A DNA stretch of 62,929 nt, the filler included, from Kipferlia bialata (taxonomy: Eukaryota), in the NCBI GenBank assembly GCA_003568945.1. It is 5 parts of 5 records of this genome, joined end to end, with 100 filler letters (N's around TTAATTAATTAA, not from the genome) between each part and the next. Parts side by side here need not be neighbours in the genome. Positions count along the whole stretch, not along the records: positions 29,791 to 47,887 come from BDIP01000493.1; 4 more parts are not named here. One strand, written 5' to 3'. Position 1 is the stretch's first letter. Each line of letters opens with the position of its first letter. Shown here in pieces: positions 11,670 through 49,826 of the stretch. A program made the translations under genes and the position numbers. Below the pieces are notes generated by a model that was not told where the DNA came from, did no database searches, and worked only from the letters and a program-made list of their open reading frames with translations.

Positions 11670-14011
11670 GCAAGTCCTCTGCCCTGCGTGTGCTGTGTGG
11701 CCTGTGGGACCATGAGAGAGGCACCATCGAGAGACCCCATGCCATAGGGAACAAGGGTATGAGGATACATATATATACTAGACACATATATCCTGGAGAG
11801 AGACAGGATAATCTGAACCATGCAATCAATACCTTTTCTTTGTACGCCAATCTACCCCTCTTCTTGTTTCATATCTCCCCCTCTCTTGTTGGCTCTCTGT
11901 TATTCTCTCCGTGTAATTCTATCTCACCCAGGCATCTTCTTCGTGCCTCAGTCCACATACATTGTGCACAACAGAATTGATATATGTTAATGTATTTACA
12001 TATACAAATATATATTCCTATATACATGTATATACATCTAACTCACTAGGCATCTTCTTTGTCCCCCAGTCCACCTACATCGTGCACAACGGCAGTCTGA
12101 GGGCACAGATATGTTACCCAATCCCCGAAGGTAAGGTTGTCTATCATCTAGCATTACTAGTAGGATATGCCTGTTCTTAGCAAAAGGCGTACCCAATCCC
12201 TGAAGGTGTATATGAATATGTGTGTGTCTATAGAATTCACACTATACATTGCTTATATGCGATGATATTCTGAGGGCCCAGATATGCTACCCCATTCCCG
12301 AAGGTATATATGTATGTGTAGGTGTGTGTCTATAGAAGTCACAGTATGTATTGCATATCTGCGATGATTTTCTGAGGGCACAGATATATGCTACCCAATC
12401 CCTGAAGGTATGGTACTCTCTACCCATTGAATATATGTCCCATTGTCAATTCTTTAATCAACATGACCATTCCTCATACTAGGCACTGTCTGCAACACCC
12501 CTGACTATGTTTAAGTCTGCCATTTGGCTCTCTCCGTCCCCTCTCTCTATTGTATTATTATATCATCTATGTATATGAAGTAATATATTTACACTTACCC
12601 CAGGCACTGTCTGCAACACCCCCGACTATGTGTTTGAGTCAGCCATGGGTCTGTGCAACCTGGACTATCTGCTGGGGAGGTATCATATATATATATATAT
12701 ACACATGTATCTACATATACTCCTTGCGGCTATATATATATATATGTAGAGAGAGAGAGAGAGCGAGAGAGTATTGGTAGTCTACCATGGGGTTGTGCAA
12801 CCTGGACTACCTGCTCGGGAGGTATATTATTCATACACATACACTAGCTAGATGTTGGCAAGTATGGTTGCCCGTGAGCTGAGAGTCTCTAATGTCTATG
12901 CGATGCTATCAGTATCACCTCTTACCCTTAGGTGCCCTCTCGAAGAGTATACCGAAGTGTGTGGGGATATGTATCTTTATAGAGAAGAATATGTGCTAAA
13001 TAGTTACTAACCCTTCAGGTTCACTCTGGACTCCAAGGAGCCCTGGGCCGAGATCCTGTCAGGTATGTGGTGTCATATCTCCTTCTCTCTCTCTCTCTAC
13101 ACCCTTTATTCACTTACCCTCCAGGTGGAGAGAGGCAGCGTCTGGGTCTTGCCCGTCTTCTCTTCCACTCCCCTGCCTTTGCTGTGATGGATGAGTCAAC
13201 AGCGGCTCTGCCTATTGACATAGAGGCTAGGTACAGACAGAAGTTCATATACATACCGTAAATATGTGTATACGCTATAGTTGTCCGAGGGTCTCCAGAA
13301 GTATCACTATCTGTCCCAGAATGTATTCTTTATATGTACATTGTGTGTATGAATGGTATATCTCTAACCCCCAGCATTCTCTCCGAGTGTGTCTCCTGGG
13401 GCATCACCCTACTCTCTCTCTCTCTATCTCCCACTGTCCCTCTTTCTGACTATATGACTATATTATGTATCATGAGTATCTAACACTAGCATCCTCTCCG
13501 AGTGTGTCTCTAGAGGCATCTGTCTCTCTCTCTGTCTATATATATCCATATAGGTATATCCATAGTATCTAACACTAGCATCCTGTCCGAGTGTGTCTCC
13601 AGAGGCATCACCCTACTCTCTGTGGCACATAGACAGACAGTGTACAGGCACCACAGATACAACCTGCACGTCACAAAGTGAGTATAGACCATTGACACCA
13701 TTGACATAATTACACTATATCATTGCATAGACAGACAGTGTACAGGCACCACAGATACAACCTACATGTCACAAAGTGAGTATACACCATTGATACAATT
13801 GACACAATAACACTATATCATTGCATATACAGACAGTGTACAGGCACCACAGATACAACCTGCATGTCACAAAGTGAGTAGAGGCAGACATTTCACCACA
13901 ATACTAACTCCCAAGTCTTATAGAGGTGCTGTGCTGATATATATCCGTGTACATCTTTAGCTTACAGTCAGGGAGGGATGGGAGCTGAGGGAGTTTGTCA
14001 ACCAGGATTAA
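11670..14011 (+). CDS. ABCD-subfamily half ABC transporter, C-terminal nucleotide-binding domain (5' truncated)
   Basis: Spliced exons give GKSSALRVLCGLW (end of Walker A), IFFVPQSTYIVHNGSLRAQICYP, WAEILSGGERQRLGLARLLFHSPAFAVMDESTAAL (signature and Walker B), GITLLSVAHRQTVYRHH and KEGWELREFVNQD*. Introns contain echo copies of exon ends. Confidence 0.85.
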
Positions 14012-14601: not shown

Positions 14602-17600
14602 TCACACTGATACCTCCCTCTCCTCCCTCTCTATCTGCACATAGCCCAGGGTGCCATCGACCACAACAGTGTCACCGTCCTAATGATTAGACTTATGGAT
14701 ATATGGATATGTGCTGTATACTAATTGATATTGAATACATATGATATACAGATGTTATACAGGGTCCCATCCACCACAACAGTGTCACCGTCCTATTTCA
14801 TTAGAAATACACTAGAATAGAGCATATACAATTATGAAGATCGATTATGTTGTAGTACAAGTAGCCACTGCCACGAACACCCCCCTATCTCTCTGTCTAT
14901 ATGTCTATGTATACATGTACAGTATATTGACACACTACCTTGATCTGTGTACATGCAGCTGCCACTGAGACCACACCTGGCAGGCCCAGCTCCCTGAGGT
15001 GAGGAAGTATTAATAATTCTCATAGTATGGATTACAAGTGTTTCATATGAATAGAGTATGTATATATAAGTATTGTCTCACCTAGCCACGACTGATCCGT
15101 GTGTGAGGTTTCCCCCCACCTCCAGCACAATGGCAGAGGCCAGAGAGAAGACAGAGGTCCAGCCTGTTAATAAGGGGCTAGAGAGAGAGAGAGAGAGAGA
15201 ATGTAGGACAATGGCAGACGCCAGGGAGAAGACAGAGGTCCAACCTATAATAAGGGTCTAGAGAGAGAGAGAGATTGTAGGGAGACTACAACATGAATTC
15301 GAATAAGCCCTTTGGAAGGTAAACATATTATGATTATTCAATAACAGTGTAACACACCTGGGTCCGAGAATGGAGCCACCAGGATGTCTCCCTTCTGAAG
15401 CCTGTAATGAGAAGTGGCCGAAACAAGATAAAGCGTAGAAGGCAACGCATACACAATTTCAGTGTCAGATTGGCAGTAGTATCTTGCATGTATTCCAGAA
15501 GAGTACCTGTGGGCGTCTGAGAGCTTCTTGATGACTCTCGCTGTCCCTCTCACTCTGCCGCTGGAGACACCTGGGGGTGGATAGAGGGTGTAGAGGGATT
15601 GCACTAGAGAGAACAAAGGGTGTAGAGGGAGAGAGAGTTCACAGAAGCAAATAGAAAAGTGTAGATATGGAAAGAAAGACAATTTGTCCAGGTGTAATAG
15701 GAAGAATGTGTAGGCCTATCTATACCTAGCCCTGCCAGTGCCCCCTCTGGCACATTGGCACTAGTAGTATATGCTGTATAGTATCTATTAGTACACACAG
15801 CGATATATATACTTATACTATATATATGTGTGAGTATACCTAGCCCTGCCAGTGCCCCCTCTGGCACATTGGCAGTGACCAATATATATAGTATATCCCA
15901 CACATACATTCATATCCATATCCATCTATATATATACAATAGTACCTGGCCCTACTACTTCATGAGTGTATATGAATATTATATACACGGTTACCTAGTC
16001 CAGGCAGAGCCCCCTCTGGCACATTGGCACCCCTGCCAAGGGCACCGTCATGCACACAGCTAGGGTTAGGATATATACATATATATTAATATATATATAC
16101 ATATATATATCGATACTAGGGCCCATGTGGGCCTAGTACTAGTATATTTAGGATTCCCATATGTCAATTGATATTGCATCACAATGGATATATACACACA
16201 CACATACATTGGGCCCCGACTATGGCTACGATGCCATTATTATCAGGTATGATGCATATGCACTTAAACATCGTGTGTTGTTTCCACATTTCTATACTAC
16301 TGTGCAATTCGCAGGTATACAACCTCGTTTGTCACTATTGCTCATACACATACCCATCCAGTGTTGTTATCACACGGCGCACAGGAGGCTTGGTCTCCAT
16401 CACATCGAGGTACCGGGCTAGCCTTCAGGTTAGTTTGCAGTATATATCGCACTTTGCAAACTCTATATCATCGAGATTATGTATGTATACTCCCAGGGTG
16501 TACATATATCTCCTACCTATCCCTAAGTGTGCCCAAGGTGGGAACCCGAGCTAGGTCAGGGGAAGGGCCGGAGTCAAGGGCTGAGAGGTAAGCTGTAAGA
16601 ACTCAAGAACCTTAATAACACGGCTGCCAGTCCATATTGTGGACGTACATAACAGTGAGGCACAATTCACGCCTATCTGTATCATACTACATACATATAC
16701 TATATCTATATATATAAATCCAACATACCTTCTGCCATTGCAATGACCTCTCTGAATGTGTAACGCTTTCGTATATATATTACATTTACTATATTACATA
16801 TTAATTGAACATATATATTGTAGTATTATACAAGTGAATACCTTCTGCCATTGCAATGACCTCTCTGAATGTGCACATGCTGGCAAGGCCCCTGGGAGTC
16901 AGAACAAGTGGATAGTATGTATACACATACATTATGGATGTATATACACTAATAGTTTCTTTTGCTGGCAAGGCCCCTGGGGTGTAAAAACAAGTGGGAG
17001 CGGAATTACACTGTGAGTGTATTCATCAGTATACTCTTCACTCTTCTCACAGTCTCTGTCTCTAGGTCCCACCCACAAACAAGTACCATATATACACAGG
17101 GGAATACCACAAATCACCACTGTTACCACTCATTCTACACTGTACCTCACAGTCTCTGTCTCCAGGTCCACATCCTCATAGATACCCTTGTCCATGCAGC
17201 CCTGGACAGCCTCCTGGGGGTCAAACAGAGAAAGTATGCATATATATATATATATATATATATCTAGCATATGTATGCAGAGGGTGAGGAGATGGTATAT
17301 AGCAGGTATAGGACACAGCCCTGGATAGCCTCCTAAGGGTTAATAGAGTGACAAAGAACACGTAAAGAAAAGAGAAGGTGAATCACCCTTTGGTAGACCA
17401 CATGACAATGGTGGATTGGGAGATGTTGGGTTGAAGGGCGAAAACGAAAGGAGCAATCATCATATGGGTAACAAATGTACCCACCTCCGCCATGAGAGAT
17501 ATCTCCACAATGTGAGTATGTAGAACAAGAACTATGGGAGTACATTCATACTACACTATACTATGTATTTCTATCATAATATACCCACACACCTCCGCCA

Positions 17601-20600
17601 TGAGAGATATCTCCACAATGTGCCTCATGATGACGTTCTTGGGCACCTCTCTGCAGCCTTAGGGTCAGAAGTATGGTGTCAAACAGTATACTTCATATTC
17701 ATACTATTCATACCTCCACACTCCCTCAGGATGGCACAGTCCCTGTGGAACTTGGCCCTCTTCCTGCCAGACAGAGACGCGCTGATCCTAAGGGTGAGTC
17801 ATGTAGAACTAGAATACATACCCGACTACAATAGATGTCTATGAATACATATATCAACGTCTCAGAATATAGAGCATATACTACTAATCTATGTCGCCCA
17901 TATATTAGTATACCTCTCCATGGCCTCCAGGCACTGAGACTCGAGACTGACATATATATACACACACACATATATATATATACATATGTACTTCTATTGT
18001 ATACACTGCGTCCTCATATGTATACAAATCATATAAATCTATATGTATACCTCTCCATGGCGTCTATGCACTGTGACTGGTGGCTGGCAAAGTCAGTCTC
18101 GCCCTGAGAGTTAGTAATAGCACTAAAAACAAGTGTGTGTGACAGAGAGTGGGAAAGAGACTGTGACTAGAGAATAGGAAGGTCAGTCCCGCCCTACAAG
18201 ATTGAGAGAGAGAGAGAGAAAAGAAGGATATATGTACCTTGAGTGTATGAACTTCACTCTACAAATATACGTGTATACATACATAATAGTATCTATACCA
18301 TTGTCAAATACACATTAACATGTATATGCGTGACTCTACCTGCTTCAGGATGGCCACAGCCTCAGGCGGCAGGTCAGTCCATGCCCAGTCGGCCTAGTGT
18401 AAGACAGAGAGATACAGTATACACATATTGACACTCTGCATCCAAGTCAGGCTATTGTTAGACAACACAAATACATGAATATACATAGATATAGATATGA
18501 ATACATATATATATATGCTGTACCTCCCCCTCCTCACAGTGTGTCTGCACCCTCTTGAGCATGCCAACAACGGTGGTCAGAATGCTAAGATTAGAAGAGA
18601 GTCAACAGATATATATGTGGATACATATTGTATATATATACTGACACTACACCCTCTTGAGCATACCAACACTGGTGGTCAGGATACTGGAAAGTGAGAA
18701 GATGGATGCTACTTGAATAATGTAGATGTATAATTATGCTATATACATCCATACCTTGTTGGGTCCTCGTTGAGCCTTGGCCTCCCAATGTCAAACTCAC
18801 AGGGGCCACGGTGCATCCAGGTCTGCATGACCCTAGGGGTAAGTATATATACATGAGTGCATAGAACACATGAATCTATGGTATATATATACAAATGCAT
18901 GTAGGTAGACACACTGTGCACCCAGGTCTGCATGACCCTAGGGATTAGTAACACTATCGTATAGTATACGCATGAAGGTAGGAATAATACATATACTGCA
19001 TATACCTCTTTACAGCACTGTGGAACTCAGGGTATTCTGTCTGCAGGGACCCCACAAACTATACAGTATATATAGTATATCTATATATATCTATATATAT
19101 ATATAGTATATAGTGATATCATACCTCTTTATGGATGCATGGAACTCGGGGTACTCAGTCTGCAGTGACTCCACAAACTCCACAGTCTGTCTGGCCTCGA
19201 GGAAGATGTCTGGGGTGCCTGTGGCCTAATGGTTAGGACACACTGGTGGGAATAGTAACACAATATCAACTATACACACACACTAATTCATAAAAGCAAT
19301 ATACTGAATCGTGTACTCTATACACACCTCCCTGACCCATGGTGTCTGTAACAGCGGTATACACATATAAACTCACTATATATATATATAGTATATATAT
19401 AGTATACATATATATATCTATATATATATACTACATACACACCTCCCTGACCCATGGTGTCTGTAGGAGCAGTGGCACCAGGGTGGGGTTGAGGGTGTTG
19501 CATCTGACGGCCTGGGGTTACGTATAATATGGGATATCAAATGATATATGTATACAATAGGAGTACTGTACCTCAGTGGCTAGTGCAGCTATATCTCTGT
19601 TCATCTCTGCCGTTGGGTTGTGGTCCATGGCCATCACAAGTATATGCTATANNNNTCATCTCTGCCGTTGGGTTGTGGTCCATGGCCATCACAAGTATAT
19701 GCTATATATACATATACTATATACATATACTATACACATATATATACACTATGTACCTCTAAGGCCAGAGCTGCAATGTCCCTGTTCATCTCAGCCGTTG
19801 GGTTGTGGTCCATGGCCATCACAAGTAAATATATATGTATACAACACATCTATACACACACACATATATATATATATATATACTACACTACCTCTACTGC
19901 TAGGGATGCTATGTCCCTGTTCATCTCTGCCGTTGGGTTGTGGTCCATGGCCATCACTAGCAGGGCAGGGTCAGCACCGATGGCCTCAAAGAGAGGGGTG
20001 ACCCTCTTCTAGAGGGTTAGCCCACGAGTATATACACATATATATATTTAGGGGCAGGGTCAGCTCACCATATACGAATATATATATGTGTAAGCATGAA
20101 TATACTTACGCATACCTTGCATGCCATCTTGCATATGAGTGGTCCAACGTCATCAACAACATATATACATATACATTAAATGCAGTCTAGATATCTATAA
20201 ATACACAAGCACTGTGTACACAAGCATATATATGTGTGTAAGTACACTACCTTGCACGCCATCTTGCATATGAGTGGTCCAACGTCATCAGCAACAGCTG
20301 AGGCACTATCAAGGGAGGCCTCGAATGCTACTCTGATATATTAGGGGTGTAGGGGGAGAGAGACAGAGAGAGAGAGAGAGAGGCAGAGTCAAGGGAGGCC
20401 TGGAAGGCAACTCTGATATATATGGGGTGTAGAGAGAGAGAGAGAGAGAGAGAGCACTGTCAAGGGAGGCCTCGAAGGCTACCCTATGTATTAGGGGTGT
20501 AGAGAGAGAGAGAGAGAGAGACAGAATGGCACTGTCAAGGGAGGCCTCAAAAGGTACTCTATGTATAAGGGGTGTAGAGGGGGAGAGAGATAGAAAAGGG

Positions 20601-20730
20601 AGCCAAGAAAGGCCACACTATGCATAAGGGGTGTAGACAGAGAAGAGAGAGATATACCCACCTGAGCCTGTCTGAGAGAGAGGCCTCGGGGAGCAGGGCC
20701 TCGACCTGGAGGGTAAGATAAGTATACAGA

Positions 20731-20761
<31 letters not shown>

Positions 20762-21299
20762 TGATAGAGAGAGAGAGAGAGAGAGACTGAGGCCTTGGGG
20801 GCAGGGCCTGGATCTAGGTGTTCAATACGAATATGTGTATGTGTAGACCTATCACGGTAAAGATGTGCATATACACAAATACACTATACCTGTGCCACCC
20901 TGCACTCCTCCACATGGCAGAGGTAGTTGGCCCTCGGCTAAATGTATACTAATATGTATATATATATATATATATATATACNNNNNNNNNNNNNNNNNNN
21001 NNNNNNNNNNNNNNNNNNNNNNNNNNNNNNNNNNNNNNNNNNNNNNNNNNNNNNNNNNNNCCAATTGATTAACTGTATATATTACCTGTGCCACCCTGCA
21101 CTCCTCCACATGGCAGAGGTAGTTGGCACCAATGGGTCTGGCGGCTATGGTAAGTAGAGGGATGACACGTAAATATATGGTTATAGGTATAGATATAGAC
21201 ACCTCTATGTACAGAGCTGTGCAGAGAGGGTGAGTAGGTATGAAGATGACAATGCGTAGTTGGCACCAGTGTGTCTGGCGGCTATTGTTAAGAAGTGAT

Positions 21300-21331
<32 letters not shown>

Positions 21332-24300
21332 GTATATATAGATATGATCCCATACCTGCGAGTGACTCCTCCAGAGTGTCCTGCAGCATGTCCTGAGGGT
21401 GAATAAAGGGCGTAGAGGGAGAGAATAAAGGGTGTAGAGGGAGATAATAAAGGATGTAGAGGGAGAGAATAGAGGGTGTAGGAAAAGGGCATAGGTCATC
21501 ACACCTTGTTGTTTCTGACCCTTCTGATACTCTTGACTATGTATGTATATTTATATACACACATACAATCACATATGTACTTATAATGAACTGACCTTGT
21601 TGTTCCTGACACTTCTGATACTCTTGACTATGCCCCACAGTCTCCTGAGGGGGGATGGTATATATATATACACATACATACTCATATATATACATATATA
21701 TATATATATATTGAACTGACCTTGTTGTTTCTGACCCTTCTGATGCTCCTGACTATACCCCACAGTCTCCTAAGGGGGGCAGCCAGGAAGAAGGAGTGGG
21801 TCTTGTCGATCTAGTCATAAGTCATAAGCCATGCAACAATATATAGAGTATAGTAGGTAGTCCGTAGCACAAGTAGTATGAGTAGATGACAAGGAAGAAG
21901 GAGTGGGTTTTGCCGATCTAAAGCGTTAGTGGGGCTATTCTATGAATATGGAACAGAATACTGAAACCATAGATTCGACTCACTCATCAAAATATATATC
22001 TCCGTTCCTCCCCTCTGTCTCTCTCCATCTATTAATTGTCTTTACATATATGGGTACAATGTACATGTGTATACCTTCCCGTTCCTCCCCCTTGGCTTGT
22101 ACCTCTTACTCCATGTCATATATGCATATCGCATTAATTACCTAGACACCTATGGAGTGTGTATATACGTTGTTGTTTGAGAGTATATACCTTTCCTTTC
22201 TTCCCCCTTGGCTTGTACCTCTTGTATAAGTGTACCCCTTATCTCTCTCCATCTATTAATTGTATTCACATATATATGCATGAATATATGTGTCATACCT
22301 TCCCGTTCCTCCCCCTTGGCTTGTACCTCCTACTCCATGTCATATATACATATCATATTAAGTACACCAAGAGTGTGTATACACTGTTGTTTGAGAGTAT
22401 ATACCTTCCCGTTCTTTCCCCTTGGCTTGTACCTCTTACTCCATGTCATATATGCATACCATACTATTTACAGTGACACCTGCAGAGCGTGTATATATGT
22501 TGTTGTTTGAGAGTATGTACCTTCCCGTTCTTGCCCCTTGGCTTGTACCTCTTCCACAGGGGGGACTGCTGGGCAGCAGCAAGGGCGGCATCGACCTTTA
22601 GTAAGGTGCTATTACACTATACACATCTACATGTACATAGTGTATTGAAAATAGTATATAGTGTATAAATAGGACTGCTGGGCAGCAGCTAGGGCGGCAT
22701 CGACATTCAGTAAGGAGTATAGTACTATAACACACTATACATGATTAATGTATAGTAGCACAAATCTATCTGTATATGTACATATATATCCATCATGAGC
22801 AGTGAATATTGGCAATAGAATAGAGTATATATGTGTAATAATAGTATGAATGTATCTATATACACCTGTGGGTCTGATGCAGCTCCTATGTCCATCATGA
22901 GGAGTGTATATTGGCACTATTTTTGACAATACTTGTATAATAGTAACAGTAATACATATATCTCTATACACCTGTGGGTCTGATGCAGCCCCGATATCCA
23001 TCATCAGGAGTGTGCTTCTGAGGAGACGGTTGTGGGTGAGCATGCCTATTGTTACAAGAGAAAATGGGAGAGAGGGAAAGGGAATAGAGAAATCAATGTG
23101 TAGAAAGACTTGAGGTGTGCGTGTTTGCCTAAGACACACAGGAAAAGAATGAGAGAGTACTTGCCTGACACGTCGCACCACAGGTTGAACTGGTCATCCT
23201 GGGGGGTGAGTTGATCGTAGTATAGAGAGTATATATAGTGTAAATCGTATTAATAATATATAGTATCAGTATCAGTATATACTGAACGGTCATCCTGGGC
23301 GAGAAGAGCATATTGATCCGAAGACGTAGCGGAGTCCTATTACTATCATATGCGTCTGCATTTAGGTATACCTGCAATGTGCTTGGGAACCTGTCCACCC
23401 CTGTGCCTGTATCTAGACCCCTCAGGGCAGACATGAAGGAGGCACCGCCTAGAGTAAGAGACTGTATGGGAAACATACACGTACTGATATATACATATAT
23501 GGAGAGTATATGTCGTATATATGTATCTAGACCCCTCAGGGCAGACATGAAGGAGGCACCGCCTACAGGGTGAGAGATAGACACACATACACACACACAC
23601 ACACATATATATATACACAAATATAGAGAGAGAGAGAGAGAGAGGGACAGAGAGACGTACCGAGGGGTGTGATGGGGTCACTCATGTTCAGTATCAGTAT
23701 ATACTCTCTCATATACGTATATACACATATTTACACACACATATATACATACACATTAATAGATAGAGAGAGGGAGGGAGAGACGTACCGAGTGGTGTGA
23801 TGGGGTCACTCATGTTCTGGAGGGGGCCTGACAATAAGGGTGTAGAGAGGGGGAGAGATACTAGACTCATTCATATACAAAGGATAGTAAATTGGAAGCT
23901 ACGGTAAGGGTGTAGTGGAGAGAGGAGTAGTTTCAAATGTCATTGACAAAGACATGGCAAATAATAGTTGTGAAAAGCTACCATTAATGACACGGCAAAC
24001 AATAGTTGTGAAAAGCTATTGATGATGACGCACCGAAGTTGAATAGAGAAAGAGAGAGAGAGAGAGAGACGCACCGAAGTTGACTAAGATGTGCTGCACT
24101 GTGTGATCTGGTGTCTTGCCAGTGGCCACGATGTCCATGAGCTGGGGGTGGGATATTGCAATTCAATATTGNNNNNNNNNNNNNNNNNNNNNNNNNNNNN
24201 NNNNNNNNNNNNNNNNNNNNNNNNNNNNNNNNNNNNNNNATACGTATTATACATTATAGTATTGTATGCCAGTGGCCACGATGTCCATGAGCTGAGGGTG

Positions 24301-25330
24301 GGGTGATGAAGTGAAATATAGAAGTGTAGAAAGGAACATAATCTACAATAGAATATTTCTATTCATTGGGGTGCGCCATGGAGACAATATGTACACACAC
24401 ATGTACATATACATCGATGGATATATATATGTCTATATATGCATATGCACTATATACTCACTACTACCTCCATCCTGACAGCCTGAGTTGAGTGTAGCAT
24501 GGAGTATATCAACTACTAACAATACTGAACTTACATATTCGTACTCATATACTGCACACATGTCTCATACAATGTACTGTACCTCCCTCCTTACAGCCTG
24601 TGTGGGGTGCATCATCGAGACAATATACACTAAGGTATATATATGGCTGTGTACTATATACTATATACCTCCCTCCTGACTGCCTGTGTGGGGTGCATCA
24701 TGGAGGACGGGACAGGGCTGAAGGTGATCCTGAGGGTCGGAAACGTATGTATTCTCACATGACCCATTAGCAATAATTGTTTCTAGTAAAAACTATATAT
24801 ATCATTGATACATCATGTTTGTATCATAAAAGACTGTTACTAGTATAGTATACACATATATATATATATGCTCACATATACATACCTCGGTGCATCGAAG
24901 AGTGATGTGATGGGCCGAGACTCCCTCTCTACACTATCTCTCTGTCTAAACATATATATAGTATCTCTCTGTCTAAACATATATATAGTATCTCTCTGTC
25001 TAAACATATATACTATTATAGTGTTCCCTGATATATATAAATGTATGTGTTTACACATATGTACCTAGGTGCATCGAAGAGTGATGTGATGGGCCGGGAC
25101 TGCAGGATGTACAGCTCTCTGTCGTTGCCTGAGGGTAAGAGTATGTATGAAGTGAGTATAGGGGCACTATCAATAGTATCTCTCATGTTACGGCAGATGT
25201 CTGTTGATATATATGGACGTGCCTGTTACCTGAGGATTAGAAGTATATCTCAAAAAGTCTCCGTATTTACAGAGATACCCTCGTGTCCCTTGTCCACACA
25301 AACTCGATGTCCTGGGAAAACTCATCTCTT

Positions 25331-25370
<40 letters not shown>

Positions 25371-37838: not shown

Positions 37839-38216
37839 ATGGGATATGCACTGGGTACGAAGGATGTGGACGCAGGCACCTGGTACTGGCTAGATGCTGG
37901 TGAAGCGATCAGGCTAGACACGGGGAACACCCCCCGATACCAAGGTTATGAGAAGCAGGGTGATCCCGTCCACGTCGTGAAGGACTGGAGTAACGGCGGG
38001 TCGTGGACCGGATACAGCTACGGTACTGTGTCCTTCACAGTGCCAGATGGCCAGCAGAGGGGTTGCATAGTTGTCCGAGCCTCCAAGGGCCTGTACTACA
38101 TGTTCAAGAGTGGTGACATGGGGCATGATGAGGGGGACACCACCACCATCCAGATGTGCACTGGCCTGGCCAGGTCGGGGGAGGCCCGTGTGGAGTTTTG
38201 GCACTGGGGGAAGTAG
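37839..38216 (+). CDS. Hypothetical 125-aa intronless protein (Gly/Trp/Tyr-rich)
   Basis: Clean ATG-TAG ORF with C/G-ending codon bias like real genes here and AT-richer flanks; no recognised family. Confidence 0.55.
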   Translation: MGYALGTKDVDAGTWYWLDAGEAIRLDTGNTPRYQGYEKQGDPVHVVKDWSNGGSWTGYSYGTVSFTVPDGQQRGCIVVRASKGLYYMFKSGDMGHDEGDTTTIQMCTGLARSGEARVEFWHWGK

Positions 38217-38672
38217 GTGCGATCATTGGCAGTCCATTATGATTGGAGGCAACCGTCACACCATGGGGCTGAGCCAAAACAGGGCTTAGACCGAACTAGG
38301 GCCTTTCTCTTTCTCTCATCTCGGTCTTGGGAACATACACTTGCTGCTAGAGGGGACGCTTGGTGTGAATGTGCCGTTGATACATAGATACAAGTACACC
38401 CAGTATATGCTTATGGTTAGTATTATTCACTCTCATTTGCGACAAATGTTACTGTAGTATGTGTTGGTTCCTCTTTGTGTGAACATGGGAACAACCACAC
38501 CATACCTTGATGTATGTCATTACACTGTCGGTCACTCGAGTATGTACTAGGCCCAATAACAAATGTCAGGGACTTACGACTAAACGATCAAGCGATTTAA
38601 TACACTTTGCTTTCCATTCTACACTCACGAATACTCACCAATACTAGACGGAGACTATATCTCGGGGTCTAT

Positions 38673-39668
38673 TTAGTTGGTGTCCATGTTGGTGTCGAAC
38701 ACAAACACGCGGCCGTCATCGCCACCAGCGAAGAGACGGTGTCCGTCGTGGGAGAAGCGGATAGCGTGCACGGGGATCTGCACGGACACACCCTCGTCGT
38801 TGTAAGCGAACTCGTGGTGAGCAGAGTCGTAGAGGGGCTGCTTAGCGTTGTCGATGTCAACGATCCTCATTCCGTTGGTGGTTCCAACGGCGATCCAGTA
38901 CTTCATGGGGGAGAACTCGAGGGAGTTGACCTCAGCACCCACGTTGAACTCACAGTGCACGGAGTTGTCTGGCAGGGAGTAGATCACAACGGATCCGTCC
39001 TTGCATCCAACAGCCACAAGGGATCCGTTGGGGGCAACGGAGATGCAGTTGATGAAGGAAGGGGCCTTGGCGATCACAACCTCCTCAGTGAGGGTGTTGC
39101 CCTCGGTGGGGAGCTGGTAGTACTTGAGGGTACGGTCCCAGGAAGCGGTGATGACGAACTCACCCTCCTTCTCGGGGATAGAGGTGTGCTTGACAGCAGT
39201 GACCCAGTCCTCGTGAGCGGGCTTCTCAGACACAACCTTGCCCTCAACGTTCCAGAGGATGACCTTCTTGTCGCGGCCTCCAGAGATCACCTTGTAGATA
39301 ACCTTGCCCTCAGCCTCCTCCTCGCAGATGTCCACGCAGGTGACATCTCCGGAGTGGCCAGTGAAGGTCTGGCGGCACTCGCCAGACTCCAGGTCCCACA
39401 TACGGAGGGTGCTGTCCCAGGAAGCAGAGAGAGCGAAGCGGTCGTCCTTGGTCAGCACAACGTCCTCAACAAAGTGGAAGTGTCCCAGGAGAGACCTCTG
39501 GGCCATGCCAGGGTGCTCGGGCTCCTGCTGCTCGAGGTCCCACATAACGAGGGACTTGTCGCGGGATCCAGAGACGAGGGTGGTGTCGTCAGCGGACATA
39601 GCGAGGCATGTCACACGCTTGTTGTGGGCCTCAAGGGTTCCGAGAAGGTGGAGAACTGATCCGCTCAT
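38673..39668 (-). CDS. RACK1: RACK1/Asc1 WD40 ribosome-associated scaffold (331 aa)
   Basis: MSGSVLHLLGTLEAH...LVSGSRDKSLVMWDL...RSLLGHFHFVEDVVLTKDDRFALSASWDSTLRMWDL...F.GH..DV...SGGRDK...HEDWVTAV...VNSLEFSPMKYWIAVGT. The coding region is intronless; a 5'UTR intron spans 39670-39782. Confidence 0.92.
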   Translation of the reverse strand: MSGSVLHLLGTLEAHNKRVTCLAMSADDTTLVSGSRDKSLVMWDLEQQEPEHPGMAQRSLLGHFHFVEDVVLTKDDRFALSASWDSTLRMWDLESGECRQTFTGHSGDVTCVDICEEEAEGKVIYKVISGGRDKKVILWNVEGKVVSEKPAHEDWVTAVKHTSIPEKEGEFVITASWDRTLKYYQLPTEGNTLTEEVVIAKAPSFINCISVAPNGSLVAVGCKDGSVVIYSLPDNSVHCEFNVGAEVNSLEFSPMKYWIAVGTTNGMRIVDIDNAKQPLYDSAHHEFAYNDEGVSVQIPVHAIRFSHDGHRLFAGGDDGRVFVFDTNMDTN

Positions 39669-39782
39669 CCTGTTAGTGAGTATTGAGGCAAATACACGCA
39701 CCCAACCGACCTGACGGGACACACGAAACCCCACAACTCCCACAGCTCCCCCAAAACATAGCCTAGCATCCACCCCACTTAC

Positions 39783-40215
39783 TTGTGTTGATTTGCTGAC
39801 GAAAACAGGCCAATTCCAAGCACTCTCCTCCGAGTCACTCCCCACAGCCGGAGATTCCGGTTTGAACTCGGAGATCACTGTTCACATTAGTGAGAATCTC
39901 CGAAAATCTCCGACGGTCATTTGCACGCTGAGCTCGAAAAACAATGTTTTTGAATGGATATCTCAAAGTTGGAGAAGGAGCTCGAGTAGAGTCACCGGTA
40001 GCACCCCTGGAGCCTGACTCCAAGGATAGGTTGTCAGGTTCGATGATTAGGCTTCTATTGGGCGAGGTCCAATGACAAGTGTTTCACAGGTGGACCCAGA
40101 TTCAGAATTGCAATAAATAGCGAACCCAACAGCCAAATCTCCGAAAATCTGATCGATTCTCCGAGTTTCAGTCAGAGATTTGGCTTGTGAGTGCATCAGT
40201 CGACGGTTTTGAGAG
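39783..40215. promoter_or_regulatory. RACK1-Ran bidirectional promoter with repeated AATCTCCGAAAATCT
   Basis: AATCTCCGAAAATCT occurs at 39895 and 40136, with further CTCCGA/TCGGAG copies, in the head-to-head spacer. Confidence 0.55.
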
Positions 40216-40931
40216 ATGCAGCAGCCGCAGCTCCCCCAGAACACTCCCCAGTTCAAGGTTGTGCTTGTCGGTGATGGTGGCACAGGTAATTCGAGTGGTC
40301 GGTGGTTTTTGTAGCGGTATGTGTGGTTTAGGCGCTCATTTCAGGAAAGACCACCTTTGTGAAGAGGCACAGGACCGGTGAGTTCGAGAAGAGGTACTAC
40401 GCCACTGTTGGCGTTGAGGTCCGTAACCTCGACTTCTACACCACTGGTGGCCCCATCGTTTTCAACGTTTGGGACACTGCTGGACAGGAGAAGTACGGTG
40501 GCCTCCGTGATGGGTACTACATCAACTCCCACGCCGGAATGATCTTCTTCGACGTCACCTCAAGGATGACCTACCGTTCCGTCAAGGAGTGGTACACTGA
40601 CCTGCACAGGCTGTGCCAGAACATCCCCATTGTTCTGGTCGGCAACAAGGTTGACGCCAAGGACCGCAAGGTCAAGGCCCGCATGGTGACTTTCCACAGG
40701 CTCAAGAACATCCCCTACTTTGAGATCTCTGCCAAGTCTAACTACAACTACGAGAAGCCATTCCTCGCTGTTGCCCGTGCCCTTCTCCGCAACAATGAGC
40801 TCCAGTTCACCGACGCCCCCGCTCTTCTCCCCCCTCAGATCCCCGTCAACCACGAGTACCTGCAGGCTCAGGAGAGGGAGCTTAGGGATGCCCAGAACGT
40901 GCCCCTGCCCATGGACGAGGACGGATTCTAA
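40216..40931 (+). CDS. RAN: Ran GTPase (2 exons, 218 aa)
   Basis: Exon 40216-40285 ([12 protein letters not shown]), intron 40286-40344, exon 40345-40931 ([61 protein letters not shown], acidic tail DEDGF). Confidence 0.98.
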
Positions 40932-41559
40932 GTGAATCGATAAATGTTTATGTTATTGCAATAAGTCTGTTGATGCCTGTGTTTGTGTAGGTCTACTTCA
41001 GTATGTTCTGGCTAATGGTGTAGTGGTCTAGTGGCGTTTGTTTGTAATAGTAGGGTAATACTCTCGTTGCGTTAATATGATACACTGCTATTATAGAAGT
41101 AACACTGGAGAATAGAGTACATGATTTACTTCTGTTCCCCTTACCAGTATCCACGGAACTAGGTAGGACTGACTCAAGAGACGTACTCTGAACCCAAGTA
41201 CACAACGACATGTGCTCCGATGTACTACGTTGTACCTGAGAGACAAGGCTGTTGACTCTTACCCTAGTCTACCCATCCACTCAACCACTCAGCCACTCAA
41301 CCACACACCAGCCCTGATGTACTCCATGGAATGAGAGGGTGTAGCTTGGGGTGCCTTCCCCCAGAGGTTCTCTGAACCATACACGGGCGGATGTGAAACA
41401 GCCCATGACAAACGATGTTCAGCACTCGTGCCATACACAATGCCTCGGAATCGCGGTCCCTCGTCGAGAGAGGTACCTGGCAACTGGACACAGTGAAGCC
41501 TGAGTGCGTCTCCATGCCGGACTCTGAGAGAGGTTTCCTTGACATCACTACAGCCTAGC

Positions 41560-43203
41560 CTACTTGCCAGTGGCGTCCATCTTGGCGAGAAGGGTGGGCG
41601 CAATGACTACGTCTCCGCCCTCACTACCCCTGCCCTTCCCACGCCTGTTCCTCTTGCGCTTACCTCCCTCCCCTTGTCCCTTGCCCTGTCCCCCTCCGTT
41701 GGGGTTGCTCTGCTTGGCAGGACGGGCGGTGGAGGGCCTCCCCTGCCCCTGCCCCTGGGGTTGGGACTGGGCATTGGCCGCAGACTTGGCCTTGGCCGCA
41801 GCCTCTGCAGCGCGCTCTCTCTTGCGACGCTTCTGCCTCTGGTTCTTGCTCTCGGTAGGGGGGGCACTCTGCACTGCAGGAGCAGTCACCTGGGCTGGGG
41901 CGCCCTGGGGTCTAGGCCGCACCACAGGGGTAGGCTGAGGCACAGCTGTCTCTGCCTTGCCTCTCCCCTTCTGGGGTGGGGCAGCAGTGGCAGGGCGGGG
42001 CTTGACGGTGACAACGGTAGGCACGGCCTGGGGAGCCGGTGCCTGTCCCTTACCTCCTCTGCCCTTACCCTTACCCTTCCCCTTCCCCTTCCCCTTCCCC
42101 TTGCCGGACTCCTTCTCCTTCTTCTTCTCTCTCTCCCTCTCTCTCTCCCTCTCCTTCCTCTTCTTCTGCTTGGACCCACCAGAGCCACTGGCAGCGGCAC
42201 TTGCATCCCTGGAATGAGACGTAACAGGTGTGTCTCTATCTCTTAGTACACACCACTGATACGGATACTGATGCATACCTGCACAGGGCCAGAAGACTGT
42301 CGTTGACCTCGGTCCTGTCATGTCCCTCTTCCACCTAACAGTAAGAGAGAGTCAGTCAGTGAGAGAGACAAGAGTCTGACAAGCAATGATAACCTTAGGT
42401 GGCTCGGGGTCGGCCACGCCGTGCTCAAGGAATGTGCGGAAGGTGGGGGCTAGGGGTAAATAGACTGGGACAATAGTGTGAGAGACTGCAAACACATATG
42501 ATTATGAGTGAGGGAGAGTATATATCATTGTGTCACTCACATGCACACATGGGGTTGAGCTGGGGAGGGTTCCTGGCGAGCAGGCCACCGAGCTTGTGGA
42601 CCTAGGAGTGAGTGACAGGACGACACGAATATGACCGGAAGAAGGTGGGGGAGGGAGAGGAATGGCAACACAGAGTAAGGGCCAAAGAGGGCGAGTACCC
42701 CATAAACCAAGCTGCTGAGTAGACTGATGACCAGTATATACAAGTGCACAAGGGAAAGGGTAACTCACTGTACACAGTCAGTGGATACTCACATATACTA
42801 CACCAACCTGCTTTGGGGCCTGCCACCCACAGGCAGACACATGCATTCCGCTGGGGCGATCTGGTAGGTGCGTGCAGTTCTGGGCTGCCTGCACTGCTGC
42901 CTTGTGGTTGAAGTACTGGACAACAAGGGAGGTCTGGACAGAAGGGTGACGAATCAGGCTGGAATAGGCCGCACGCCCACCCAAGCTCGACACAAATGAC
43001 TTAATATCCTCATCCTCGGGTATTTTGGTCACCAAGAGCCTGGACGGGTTTGTGATGAAGGCGGGAGGCCTCTTTTCATCCCTCCTCGACCTATTCGAAC
43101 CACCTCCACGACCCTTCCTAGGGGGCTTCCGGGCGCCCTCTTTTGGCTTGCCCGCACCCTGTGCTGGTGCTGCAGGCTCTCCATCCTTCCCCCCCTTTCC
43201 CAT
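41560..43203 (-). CDS. RRM-like + basic/low-complexity protein, tentatively UPF3 (Smg4)-like
   Basis: Five spliced exons: SRLLVTKIP...VVQYFNHKAAVQAA...APKQ | VHKLGGLL | SPTFRTFLE | NDSLLALCR | KQKKRKERERERE.... The order of elements resembles UPF3 (KVVIRRLP...GTI..DPEY.KFLE...TPLL.FL...K/E/R-rich). The start codon is uncertain. Confidence 0.45.
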
Positions 43204-43434
43204 GACTGCTAGGGGCACAGTATGGAGAGGCCCTTCAGCCCACCTCATCAGAGTCTGATTCAGACTGCACCCCTTCAAGAGCTTGACCGGTGTTTTTGTT
43301 CTATTCCTCAGAGTGGACTCTCTTTGCAACATAGTACAAAGGTGGGCCACACACGGGCTCTGGTGCCTTACACATTGTTCTGTGCCTTCCACTTACTCAC
43401 CCTAGCTCGTTAGACTGACCTTGTTGCGGCTCAC

Positions 43435-44379
43435 ATGGCACAAGACAAGAAGGGCAAGGGCAAGGCCAAGTCACAGGGTACGAGTAATCTATTACGCTTG
43501 TCGCCACACACTTGGGCTCAGGGCTGAAACATCCTTTGTATTGTGAGCAGTGACTCTGCCTCTGTTGGTGGCATTGTTCGTTATTTCTCTCCCTCTCCCC
43601 CTGTCTTGGCAGTGTCTAGTATATCCTCTGACTCTAGTATACATATATCCTCTGACTCCAGATGTGACCAGGCAGTATGACGATAAGGACCATGCCAAGA
43701 GGATCAGACGGGCCCAGATCCTGCCAAGGTATAGTGATACCTCTCATGTCTCTATGTCTATCCCTCTCACTCTCCCTGACCCCCCAGACAGAGGGTGACC
43801 TCGGAGATTGACCTCTTCTCCCACCTGGCACAGGACGTGGTGGAGGTGGGCACACTCTATCACTATTGTCTAGAACTGATCTTTGTTACTGGTAGGCACC
43901 CTTCTCCTCTGCATAACTATGCGTGACTCCTCTCACCCCAGACCTCCTACACCGCCCCCCTTGGTCTGGGCACCCTGCCTGACCCCTGTCTGCTGCATGG
44001 GAGACAGGTGGCCAAGGTGGACGGCACAGAGCTCGGGGCAGGGGCTAGGTACTCAGACTCATGGATACAAAGTAGTATTGATACATTATACACACATATA
44101 CCAACATTCCTGCTCGGGCTCGGCAGGGCTAGGTCAGGGATATATATGCAGGGTTACAGATTCATCCATCCTGTCTCAGTACCCCCTTACCCCAGGACAT
44201 ACGGACAGATGCTGGGGACTGGTCAGATTGACTCCCCAAGTGCACAGGTATGGATGGTATAGTATGACTATATATGAAGTGTTCTATTTGTGCACTCTTA
44301 GGGGAGAGGTCAGATTGCCCATTCTCTCTCTCTCTCTCTCTCCCTCACCCCAGGTGACTGCCTTTGCCCAGTCCCTCCT

Positions 44380-44415
<36 letters not shown>

Positions 44416-44517
44416 CCCAGGTGACTGCCTTTGCCCACTCCCTTCTACTCTCTCTCTCCCCACTCCCCCCCCCTCTCCCTCACCCCAGGTGACTGCCTTT
44501 GCCCAGTCCCTTCTGCT

Positions 44518-44557
<40 letters not shown>

Positions 44558-46300
44558 ACCCACCAGGTGACTGCCTTTGCCCAGTCCCTCCTGCTCAACC
44601 TGTCCACCCTGGAGCTGAGGAGGGCACAGTCCAAGGAGGAGGCATCGGAGGCCAGGACACTCTTGAACAGGTATATATGTATTTATATATCTGTATATAT
44701 ATATATATTATATTGGTGATATATATGTATATATGAACAGTCCAAGGAGGAGGCATCGGAGGCCAGGACACTGCTCAACAGGTGCATATCCATATTTGTA
44801 AATATGTGCCATTTCATTTGCGCATGCCTCTCAAGTCGATGCAGTTATTTATCTATCCCTCTTACACGATAGGGCAGACAAGGAGCGCCGCAACAGCACC
44901 CTTGGTGACAAGCAGGTCAGGGTCGACACAACAGCCATGCCATGGGACAGGTGGGGAATGCTTGTCACACTTGTATCTCCTCTCCTCTTGTCTGTTCCCG
45001 TTGTGGTCCTATATCATACTTCGTGTCTCTATTTGTGTGTATCTCTCTGGATCCACCTTTCTGACTGTACCTTGTTCATATATATATATATGTCTGTCAT
45101 TTCCCTGTGTCTATATCTCTGTCCCGTCTGACTCTATCAGGGCGTGCCTTGTGCAGCTCAATGTCTACCATCTCTCTCTCTCTCTCCATCTATTCTTTAN
45201 NNNNNNNNNNNNNNNNNNNNNNNNNNNNNNNNNNNNNNNNNCATCTATTCTTTACATATGATATATCTTTGTGTCTGACTATAGGGCCTGCCTTGTCCAG
45301 CTCAATGTCATCAGCCAGTACACCAGGGACTGCCACGCGCCACTCCCCATCGGTATGGCCCAGATCAATGCCCATGCTACTATTTGTGACAGTGTCTTGT
45401 GCTATACTCTCCCTCTCCCTCACCCCTCAGCCACTGGCAACTTCATCCGGTCTGTCAAGTCCATGATATCACAGGTCCAGGCACAGGCACCAAGACTATC
45501 TCTGAATGAGGTGGGGTATATGTATATATATATATATATAGGTCCAGGCACCCAGGCTGTCCCTCAACGAGGTGGGGCACTGTCTCATACAATACAGATG
45601 TGTGCATTTATATACATGTGTATTGATGTCTATCTTTCTCCTCCCTCACCCCAGGAGGGATGCTTCAAGGCCCTCAAGGGAGGGGTGGAGAGGTATCTGG
45701 ACCGTCACGTGTTTGCAGCTGGCAGGTACTCAATGGTTGTTGTATTGACTAATTGTATATCTATAATAATCCTTGAGAGTGGTGTCTTTATACCATGATA
45801 AATGTATCCATTTCTGTATATAGGATATGGGTCTTTTCATGGTTAGTATGTCTCTATGTCGCTCACCCCCAGGGACATTGCCGCCACCGCTGCTGCCCGT
45901 ATCGTACCTGGAGACACCCTTCTTCTCTATGGAAACTCCAGGTACATTAGTATATTGTTCATCATGGAATCCCTTGTTACACTACAGAGCTGATGAGTGT
46001 ATGTGTGCACGTCGGTTCTCACCCTAGGATGGTTGAGCGTGCCTGCCTGATTGCCTGGCAGAGTCTGAGCCTCACCCACCTCCAGCCATTCTCAGTGGTC
46101 GTGGTGGACTCTAGGCCCCAGGACCTGAGGTATATAGACAACACACACACACATATATATTGACAGCACATACATATATGTAAATACAGCCTGAGCACTA
46201 TCAACCCCAGGATTGCCAAGACCCTTGTCCAGGCTGGCATCTCTGTCTCGTACTGCATGCTCAGTGGGCTCCACCACGTCATGGCATCGGTGTCCAAGGT

Positions 46301-46342
<42 letters not shown>

Positions 46343-46383
46343 GTATTATATCCGTCATGGCATCGGTGTCCAAGGTGTGTACA

Positions 46384-46414
<31 letters not shown>

Positions 46415-46582
46415 TCTCCCCTTACCCTAGGTCATCACTGGCACCTTTGCCGTCCTTGGCAGTGGGGCAGTCATGAGCAGGGCAGGTACCACATACCATG
46501 TACCTCCCATACGTCTATGTATCTGACTATATCCTCACTGGTGCAGGCACTACCCTGATCTGTTCCGATGTCTGTATAGTCA

Positions 46583-46620
<38 letters not shown>

Positions 46621-47559
46621 CTAACTGTGNNNNNNNNNNNNNNNNNNNNNNNNNNNNNNNTCTCTATATATATATCTAACTGTGACCTCACTAATGCAGG
46701 CACCGCCCTGATCTGCTCCATGGCCAAGGAGAGGCACATCCCTGTCCTGTGTCTGGCAGAGACATTCAAGGTAACCCACTGTATACTATATATACTATAC
46801 ACTGTGTATACCCCACTCACTCTTTAGTTCACTGACCGTGCCTGCTCTGACTCTCTTGCCTTCAATGAGGTCGGGGACCCAGCCGTGATTGCACACATCC
46901 CAACCCGCATCGGTATCATCCAGGTACACAGCCATACTCAAACAATATACGTATAATATTATGTATATAAGTATAATTATTACTCATCCGGACTTCCCTC
47001 ACCTCAGGATGTGGCTGTGGCCCCCAAGGCCAACACCATTGTGTCGGAGGATGAGGTATTACTTAGGGGACTTACAATCAGTATGTTTCCAGTATCTCTT
47101 CTATTCTCCCTCTCTCTCTCTCTCTCTCCATATATATATATAACCCAACACCAGAATGCCCCCACCCATGAGGCCCCCCTGGCTGAGACCACCGATGACC
47201 TCTGGGCCAGACCCAACGTGTCCATCGCCAACATCAGACACGACCTCACACCCCCAGACCACGTACGGTGCTATATACATATATATATATATCAATACAT
47301 AGTCTGCTCTATGTAGTTATGAGTTAGATACCACAGGTATCATTGGATTATGTAGGTAGTACCATATCTATGTCTCAGCTGACCCCTCAGGTCAATGTGC
47401 TCGTGACAGAGAACGGAGAGGTGCCACCATCTAGTGCAAGGTGAGAATGGGTGTGTGGATGATTGGTCTTGTTGTTGGTCTGACCCCAGATACATTTGGG
47501 GATCCCTTGCCGGCCAGGACTACATCGACTGGCGCACCTTTGGAGGCAGGGAGACCTAA
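43435..47559 (+). CDS. EIF2B4: Translation initiation factor eIF2B delta subunit
   Basis: YDDKDHAKRIRRAQILPR, IDLFSHLAQ, RIVPGDTLLLYGNS, FSVVVVDSRP, VSKVITGTFAVLGSGAVMSRAGTALICSMAKERHIPVLCLAETFKFTDR..SD..AFNEVGDP, NIRHDLTPPDHVNVLVTENGEVPPSS; stop at 47557-47559. Confidence 0.88.
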
Positions 47560-47887
47560 GCAGACCCTATGACCTATGGAGAAGAACATCGTTTGCACAC
47601 TGCCGTGTCTGTTATGTCATGTATACACAGCTCCCTATCATTATGGGGTTGGACAGAGTGGGCACTAAATTTAGCTATATTGTTGCGTATCCTCAGTGCC
47701 CCTCTAGCACACACTAGTACAAGGAACTGTGATATACTAGTACCAATGCGTGGCTGGTGTTCACTGGTGTACAACGGTGGCAGTCGTGGGAACCATACGA
47801 AAAAGCTTTTGCACGGTCGCACTCTGAACCAAGGGACAACAGAATCAATAATCAGTGGGTGTCGAAAGACACCGTTTGGGGTTTGCT

Positions 47888-48341: not shown

Positions 48342-49788
48342 GTTCTATTATGCCTCTATGCACCATGTGGAGCTATGGATGGCATATCCCAAGAGGAGGG
48401 GAGAGAGAGAGACATAGACAGTGTGTCTGGAGGATGCGAAGGGGGGAGAGAGAGAGAGGCTCTTCAAGTGAGGAGAGGAGGAGAGAGAGAGAGAGAGACC
48501 ATGCTAGACATGGGGGTCAAGTCCTGGCCCAGCTGTGTCACCAGTAACACACTGCCATTCAGCTATGGAGACAACGCACACTATGCGACAGGTAGGTTTA
48601 TACTACTAGTATATTATGTGGAATTTGTAGTAATCCATATTTCATACTAAATCGGTGAAGGGCTTACCAATGCATCCACAACAATCTATTTATTTCTCTC
48701 AGTTTCTCTCTCTCTCTCTCCCTGCGCCCTTATATTAGGCCATGGCTATGACTCTGGTGTGACCCATGCCTCCACTCTGAGTGTGGATGACACCCCATAC
48801 CTATCAAGCACTGGCATATCGGTAAGTATAGTATATATATATATATATATGTGTGTGTATATAGTATTATTATATGTATATAGTATATATATACTACACC
48901 ATACCTATCAAGCACTGGCATATCGGTATGTATAGTGTAGAGTGTATAGTGTATAGTTCTACGCTAGTCATGTGACCTCTGTCTTTCTTTCTAGGCCCAT
49001 TTATATATATGTGTATACTATATCTCACCCCTAGGTAGCTGATGACGCTGGAGTATAAATATATTTATATATATACAGATATTGTAGCTGGAGTGATATT
49101 GTAGGTGGTATTTCGCTCTCTAAATATCTCTCTCTATTCCTGTATATATACCTCTGTCTCACTCCAGCTATCCGATGACGCTGGTGTGTGTGTATATTTA
49201 TACGGAAATTCCTATGTATATATCTGTATATTTATGCAAATATAGCTATGCTCACCTATATCTATATGTCTACTACAATACTATTCTTTATACCTCTGTC
49301 TCACCCCCAGCTAGCTGATGACACTGGAGTGTTTGCTCCATCCCCTGCTGACCTCGGGAAGGTATGTATCCCGCTCAGTGGATTTTCTTCTTTCCCATTC
49401 ATCTGTCTCCCTCGCTCTACACCCTTAATCCTCTCACCCTACACCCTTAATACCCAGGTTGTGGGTGTGGAGGCAGGGGACAACGTGTCATTTGTGTGGA
49501 CAAGGTATGTTTATATACATACACACATATATTATATGTTAATCTTTCGAGGGGGTGGAGAGGGAGAGAGAGAGTGCTTTGGAGATATCAGAGAGTTCTT
49601 TCCTTCTTGTCTATTCCATATACTCTCTCTCTCTCTCTCTCCTCATTCCCAGGTCAGGCAATCTCCTTGTTGTTGGGTCGACATCATACGGGCTGACAGG
49701 TATGTACCATCAATATTATTTCATATCCCTGCATGCCTTGCATCGGTAGATAACGACACTGCCACCACCTCCCTGTCTGCCTTCACTA

Positions 49789-49826
<38 letters not shown>

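Follow-up and report, generated by a model that had tools for sequence, protein, structure and literature searches.

The eIF2B-delta locus

Kipferlia bialata, a free-living fornicate, has 124,912 introns (PMC5874029). The window, by which we mean the whole stretch of its DNA analyzed here (62,929 nucleotides, filler included; assembly GCA_003568945.1), consists of five scaffolds joined by spacers, and all the counts given below are those of this window only. The third scaffold (29791-47887, 18,097 bp) contains the gene in which the original prediction had flagged an unusual repeat (Table 1); its assignment to eIF2B-delta was correct, as indicated by an IF-2B domain (Pfam PF01008, E 3e-37) and by best named relatives that are mostly delta subunits (26-34% identity, in a protein search rather than a tree). 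A deposited K. bialata protein for initiation factor 2B, found in a protein search with the flagged exon, matches the gene model letter for letter, and no relative above 36% over long stretches was found in the protein search. Two N gaps in the gene (45200-45241 and 46630-46660) are bordered by overlapping sequence, and the first is probably no true gap, a contig of the DNA run X1 crossing it.

Table 1. Genes, exon-end copies (echoes) and splicing features located in the window
Feature	Coordinates	Strand	Details
ABC transporter gene, 3' part	11670-14011	+	10 echoes, 5/6 introns; own model, open frame; PF00005 hint, E 0.001
PEP-utilising enzyme gene	14900-29211	-	46 echoes, 29/43 introns; own model, about 1,000 codons open; PF00391 hint, E 0.003
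Proteasome subunit gene (part)	29857-31123	-	2 echoes, 3 introns; own model, Pfam hint
Dynein heavy chain exons	35246-37238	+	2 echoes, 10 introns; own model, Pfam hint
eIF2B-delta gene	43435-47559	+	20 exons, 494 aa; own model, equal to deposited protein P0001
Three acceptor-side echoes of exon 44567	44354-44518	+	30 nt each; 0, 3 and 1 changed codons
Donor-side echo of exon 44567-44670	44737-44781	+	45 nt; two synonymous Leu codons
Acceptor-side echo of exon 45285	45141-45165	+	2 synonymous
Working exon	45431-45510	+	last 27 nt (45484-45510) are the first copy; X2 contig piece 45430-45508, 0 other letters
Possible internal donor CAG/GTCCAG	45472-45480	+	rank 5/102; use not seen
Intron enclosing flagged echo	45511-45654	+	144 nt, from RNA contig offset arithmetic; depth of bin 45505-45651 is 4 covered bases
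Intron part of 61-bp unit	45511-45541	+	donor GTGGGG, TA run, AG at 45540-45541 (weak acceptor, rank 5/102)
Flagged echo	45542-45577	+	exon-end copy 45542-45571 (27-nt match from 45545) and unused donor GTGGGG
Donor-side echo of exon 46211-46298	46353-46374	+	identical, 22 nt
Acceptor-side echo of exon 46700	46547-46566	+	2 synonymous, 1 Ala/Thr
RCC1-repeat gene	48739-57990	+	34 echoes, 16/21 introns; own model, 560 codons open; PF13540, E 6e-8

The peptide QAPRLSLNE is encoded twice, 61 bp apart (45484-45510 and 45545-45571), each copy being followed by GTGGGG, and the second copy, termed here an echo, differs from the first by six consecutive third-position changes (CCA/CCC, AGA/AGG, CTA/CTG, TCT/TCC, CTG/CTC, and AAT/AAC), as originally described. 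The accompanying statement that no residue is replaced holds for these 27 nt but not for the codon immediately upstream, where either an in-frame 6-nt indel or an Ala/Val exchange has to be accepted. The probability that all six changes in 27 nt are synonymous is 4e-4, or 6e-3 if the exon is allowed to drift silently too. Regarding the proposal that the echo uses the codons favored in highly expressed genes, all six are indeed commoner in RACK1, Ran, and RPS3, but this is a local property, since the preferred codons are divided 99:95 between exons and echoes over the whole set, with no overall direction.

As to which of the two copies is present in mRNA, a check that had been called for, the first copy is the one used both in the single RNA contig available and in the deposited protein, and the echo is intronic. 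This contig derives from run X2, which was taken as RNA by guess and in whose contig 12 GT-AG joints are spliced; its offset from the eIF2B-delta model is a constant 29 at 8/8 checked places, and therefore neither the echo nor a 6-nt shorter form is contained in it, although minor use of the echo would escape this contig, assembled RNA contigs losing rare isoforms.

Distribution of echoes in the window

A blind repeat search returned 173 pairs, distributed as 0, 92, 22, 59, and 0 over the five scaffolds. The six genes with junction-type pairs were modeled, all with open frames and one exon of each with a Pfam hint; eIF2B-delta is the one with RNA support, and the other five models are our own, made without RNA. 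A search anchored at GT or AG identified 102 echoes (55 of donor and 47 of acceptor ends) in 60 of the 102 introns of these genes, against none in 1,999 trials of a mismatched exon-intron control. No echo was detected in the 54 introns of 11 other machine-modeled genes, so that 60 of 156 modeled introns (38%) bear echoes, with strong clustering by gene. Echoes are thus a real, window-wide feature, and the flagged one lies at the tail of about 100 of them, which does not agree with the idea of a singular or directed recoding. With changes at six of its nine third positions it is the highest of the 102 (0.2 such cases expected under a binomial and 0.4 under a beta-binomial), and its unit is both the shortest (61 bp) and the most diverged.

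The units span 61-196 bp (median 107), with about 33 nt of exon and 67 nt of intron, and make up 44% of the intron bases in the six genes, in arrays that carry up to four different echoes. All are partial exons with one splice site, never exceeding 80% of the exon. Their splice sites score on par with working ones, only six further matches lacked GT or AG, and a frameshifting indel was found in 1/102 echoes. A pairing of acceptor and donor echoes as the halves of one split exon looked good by eye and was rejected by permutation (p 0.96-0.99, 20 exons).

Several observations on the scaffolds may be added. The first and last (1-11489 and 58153-62929) have mostly short introns and no repeat pair, and scaffolds 2 and 4 contain 151 of the 173 pairs. 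Pieces at 30704-30748 and 56860-57010, which, relative to the exon, carry an insert or a shared 2-nt shift and were left uncounted by the anchored search, look like older or rearranged echoes. The dynein heavy chain exons (347 codons) do not obviously continue to the left or right on the scaffold and are possibly a fragment, or part of a gene split by long inserts. In the PEP-utilising enzyme gene, at least 43 introns interrupt about 1,000 codons, and at 23046-23164 (minus strand) the frame is best kept open by a GC-AG intron, the sole one among the 102 modeled. The encoded protein may resemble the bacterial PEP synthase or rifampicin phosphotransferase types, a likeness that would imply many intron gains subsequent to a transfer.

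Protein-level constraint on the echoes

Differences between echoes and exons amount to 64/1198, 47/1203, and 227/1204 at codon positions 1, 2, and 3, respectively, and 200 codons are changed silently and 99 with a residue change; the echo at 57256-57310 in the RCC1-repeat gene has eight synonymous and no replaced codons. By site class, non-degenerate sites differ at 101/2299 (4.4%) and fourfold sites at 147/654 (22.5%), the corresponding figures for the four conserved genes being 4/431 and 28/122. After correction the ratio comes to 0.17 (0.12-0.23 in a bootstrap over 75 splice sites; 0.16 when each splice site contributes a single echo), whereas a neutral echo beside a constrained exon, simulated under the same detection and allowing for the under-detection of older, more decayed echoes, gives 0.50-0.62. 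The original judgment that neutral decay is inadequate is thereby upheld, and the echoes carry a signature of protein-level selection that decay within an intron cannot give.

The signature is present in the echoes themselves. Changes private to one echo fall at 31/289 fourfold and 28/1009 non-degenerate sites (p 2e-7), and differences between echoes at 53/200 and 42/710; this shared silent bias indicates that the echoes' own histories have passed under protein selection. Replacements in echoes are milder than random (65% conservative, against 48%), and 4/111 serine codons cross between the TCN and AGY classes. Echoes farther along an array are no more diverged at fourfold sites (0.23) than the nearest ones (0.26), and the intron flanks of echoes are homologous yet far diverged (0.50 near donors, against 0.35 for random sequence). 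Identical echoes number 13, against 5 expected, and their flanks are as diverged as those of the others.

In donor echoes, synonymous-class sites differ at 100/352 (28%) within 20 nt of the GT and at 38/303 (12.5%) beyond (p 5e-7, on both strands); acceptor echoes show no distance gradient in synonymous-class differences. Base composition was rejected as the cause of the donor gradient, the expected heterozygosity being equal near donors and mid-exon (0.72). Composition at fourfold sites is itself skewed in the six genes: the last 20 nt before donors have 34% A and 12% T, against 16% A mid-exon (p 1e-9), and in the first 20 nt after acceptors pyrimidines reach 76% and A falls to 8%. The A-richness is greater in exons that have a donor echo (42% versus 27%), and divergent echo letters track the splice-side bias (p 0.004), which may reflect nothing other than transitions and is left out of the evidence.

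Origin of the echoes

The reading towards which we lean, by a modest degree, is that each echo was until recently the working exon end of a deeply diverged allele and was put in place by one-sided recombination running into non-matching intron. In a very diverse species, only the short exons would be expected to remain alike in the two homologues. After a break within an exon, the broken end would invade the homologue, and synthesis would copy the rest of the homologue's exon end, its splice site, and some 70 nt of its non-matching intron; the copied strand, left without homology to return by, would join the remaining broken end through microhomology, in many cases next to a microsatellite. 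This would leave a unit of about 107 bp: one allele would contribute the functional splice site, on the outward-facing side, and the exon end of the other allele would be left behind inside the intron. Old echoes may be renewed afterwards by conversion from working alleles, and the echo itself would be functionless.

Under this reading, echo and exon would differ silently because both had been selected as protein-coding before they met, and the lack of a rise with rank, the lack of direction, and the diverged but homologous flanks form the pattern expected of copies sampled from a variety of diverged, working alleles. Fewer than 15 nt of exon are left uncovered in 2/102 echoes, against 23% in simulation; that the far 15 nt are so rarely covered is as predicted by the need for invasion homology, although it could alternatively result from selection against near-whole exon copies. 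A microsatellite lies within 12 nt of the junction in 41/102 cases (23% in the background), and microhomology is indistinguishable there from the end of the match. In the fornicates examined in one paper, Rad51A and NHEJ are missing, whereas Dmc1 is present twice and meiotic genes are retained, and sex is unobserved in metamonads (PMC8516963); exon-favoring crossovers occur in a fungus with a synonymous diversity of 0.20 (PMC4209137, PMC4576712). The available parts of PMC5783719 and PMC6679479 offer no direct support for the mechanism by which echoes would form.

Ordinary allelic variation had been considered too small to account for the repeat, and rightly so, although the favored explanation is nonetheless allelic or between-lineage variation of an extraordinary extent. 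Several points count against it. No allele with the letters of the flagged echo was found, either in the runs (none of X5, X6, X7, and X11 covering the exon) or in the protein search; X1 shows no second allele, sex is unobserved in metamonads, diversity among the sampled lineages is uneven, and a fourfold diversity near 0.22 would be at the top of the known range. The donor gradient and the excess of identical echoes are left unaccounted for, as are the clustering by gene and the small spread in unit length.

The strongest of the alternatives, although an unlikely one, is that echoes are exact self-copies kept by second-order selection, deletion or conversion between copies moving echo letters into the working exon, so that echoes with replacements are a load. 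Such selection yields the same low ratio, and the excess of identical echoes and the long identical distal tracts in donor echoes fit an exchange between copies. It predicts, however, that non-degenerate differences should rise away from the splice site, and by thirds they are 0.056, 0.040, and 0.038; moreover, an exchange frequent enough to be selectable would be expected to erase the silent differences unless diversity were already very high, and no collapse joint at 3% was found in run X1, whose contigs lose rare forms.

Somewhat less probable still is alternative splicing, in which the flagged echo is, or was, a 30-nt microexon reached from a donor at 45475 through an acceptor at 45541, giving a protein two residues shorter with both copies translated. 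The route, which the original prediction had raised, is possible in frame, and in its favor the flagged echo begins directly after an AG, has C-ending codons like exon starts rather than A-ending ones like exon ends, and belongs to the most extreme unit in length and divergence. Both sites are nevertheless the fifth weakest of 102 (1/102 modeled donors begins with GTC), and the RNA contig and the deposited protein contain the first copy. Among the echoes at large, an exact GT/AG route of this kind, with acceptor, donor, and frame, exists for 10/102 and a loose one for 60, and 42 have none even within 12 nt; since these 42 show the same bias (38/850 non-degenerate versus 46/261 fourfold), alternative splicing cannot be the general cause, and the echoes at large do not fit duplicated alternative exons.

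We regard as improbable, more so than the preceding alternative, an error-prone copying in which inaccurate synthesis makes a new working exon end, only silent or mild errors survive, and the echo is the displaced earlier version. It would account for echo-private silent changes without diverse alleles, and for the enrichment of conservative replacements. It would also require about 20% error per base, and we know of no polymerase with such a rate; the spectrum has no base specificity (each of the twelve types of substitution is found at fourfold sites, 4-24 times), and the intron flanks are diverged far beyond 20%.

An assembly artefact, with two haplotypes interleaved at microsatellites, is very improbable. 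The TA run is not spanned by any X1 contig with 31 letters to either side of it, and X1 is possibly the source of the assembly and so not independent of it; but in X1 both copies reach the depth of their flanks (493 and 498, compared with 497-507) without any alternative letters, and neither a second version of any exon, at 85% likeness, nor a second allele was found. The flagged echo is at the start of X1 contig 5, which continues into RNA-confirmed exons, and arrays of up to four different echoes are not what interleaving would give. Equally improbable is an old self-duplication with a neutral echo, from which the working exon has drifted or been driven to recode silently; the six exon codons are all the rarer ones at the flagged locus, but the window-wide data already contradict this account, with a ratio of 0.17 where neutral internal tandem duplication expects at least 0.5, with echo-private changes that are also silent, and with a 99:95 division of preferred codons that led us to reject directed recoding of the exon.

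Relation to known systems

Tandem exon duplication with mutually exclusive splicing also results in two nearby copies with silent divergence; echoes differ in being partial, in having a single splice site, and in their absence from the RNA contig. In diversity-generating retroelements, the differences between template and variable repeats are confined to adenine positions of one copy, and adenine-specific mutagenesis or a template of this type was rejected given the unspecific spectrum of the echoes. Internal gene duplication, reportedly a subject of Gao and Lynch in 2009, likewise copies exon-intron junctions head to tail into the adjoining intron, and the main feature of the echoes is the protein-level constraint on such copies at 38% of modeled introns.

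Tandem duplication of splice signals is already known, as described in Hellsten et al. 2011 (PMC3265369) and bioRxiv 051292, where intron gain of the AGGT type proceeds, as in the echoes, by a local duplication that doubles splice signals. In that case a purely exonic segment becomes a new intron, whereas in Kipferlia an exon end and its intron flank are doubled inside an existing intron, with silent differences and without the creation of a further intron; an AGGT-type gain was rejected for the flagged locus because the spliced intron holds the whole echo and does not run from the GT of the first copy to the AG of the second. Meiotic tandem duplications at mouse hotspots involve offset breaks, aborted repair from the homologue, and end joining, with both homologues at one junction, as proposed here, but in the available part of that report (bioRxiv 2020.06.23.168138) the events are rare, seen by PCR, and mostly without ATM, the inter-homologue products are deletions, and neither a link to exon ends nor genome-wide accumulation is described. 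In Schizophyllum commune, a synonymous diversity of 0.13-0.20 accompanies recombination confined to locally similar exon sequence, again as proposed here; the crossovers are clean and no stranded exon-end copies are reported in the parts of PMC4209137 and PMC4576712 available, and the Kipferlia reading rests on the DNA of one strain. Neither Kipferlia echoes nor silent-only divergence of intronic exon-end copies appeared among the titles and abstract openings listed in the searches, a set lying largely outside subscription journals.

Untranslated DNA with a signature of protein-level selection in 60/156 modeled introns calls for an explanation. Should the letters derive from other alleles, the diversity of a population would be recorded in one genome, as evidence of outcrossing and extreme diversity where sex is unobserved; the length of repair tracts could be read directly from the units (about 107 bp), and introns would have a way to grow longer. 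Selection of the echoes in place would be a rarer thing still. A bolder proposal, to which we give somewhat less than even chances, is that in Kipferlia, which according to a published fornicate survey has neither Rad51A nor NHEJ, exon ends are regularly exchanged among lineages with a silent divergence of about 25% and the displaced ends are parked in the introns, in which case tens of thousands of echoes genome-wide would constitute an allele archive, point to cryptic metamonad sex, and represent a main engine of intron growth. The unused splice sites of the echoes, which are intact and match the working ones in strength, provide a natural test of how the first donor and the last acceptor come to be chosen by the spliceosome. 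Echoes can also mislead gene finders, and our own model took several of them as microexons.

Relatives in public runs

Eight of the 11 listed runs were compared (X8-X10 were left out). In the natural relative X7, 43/434 bases differ in six eIF2B-delta exon pieces (at a depth below 3), close to the 18/229 by which the echoes of this gene differ from its exons; the seven X7 differences listed amount to five silent codons and one Ile/Val, and X7 may be a separate, non-interbreeding species. The flagged exon (45431-45510) is covered by none of X5, X6, X7, and X11; the cover by X5, X6, and X11 is confined to Ran, except for a 31-nt piece of X11 on a repeat, and X3 and X4 give no cover of eIF2B-delta, a lack that is no evidence either way. 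A metagenome scan with RACK1 returned one distant locus, which was left out of the comparison.

For Ran (40220-40940), X6 and X11 are nearly identical to this strain (1/151, 0/268, and 1/209 differences), whereas X5 differs at 12/563 and X7 at 28/599 positions; the near-identity of the former two against the distance of X5 indicates that diversity among the sampled lineages is uneven. In this gene, environmental RNA runs contain close relatives at distances of about 0.3%, 2%, and 5%, which points to several Kipferlia-like lineages in public data.
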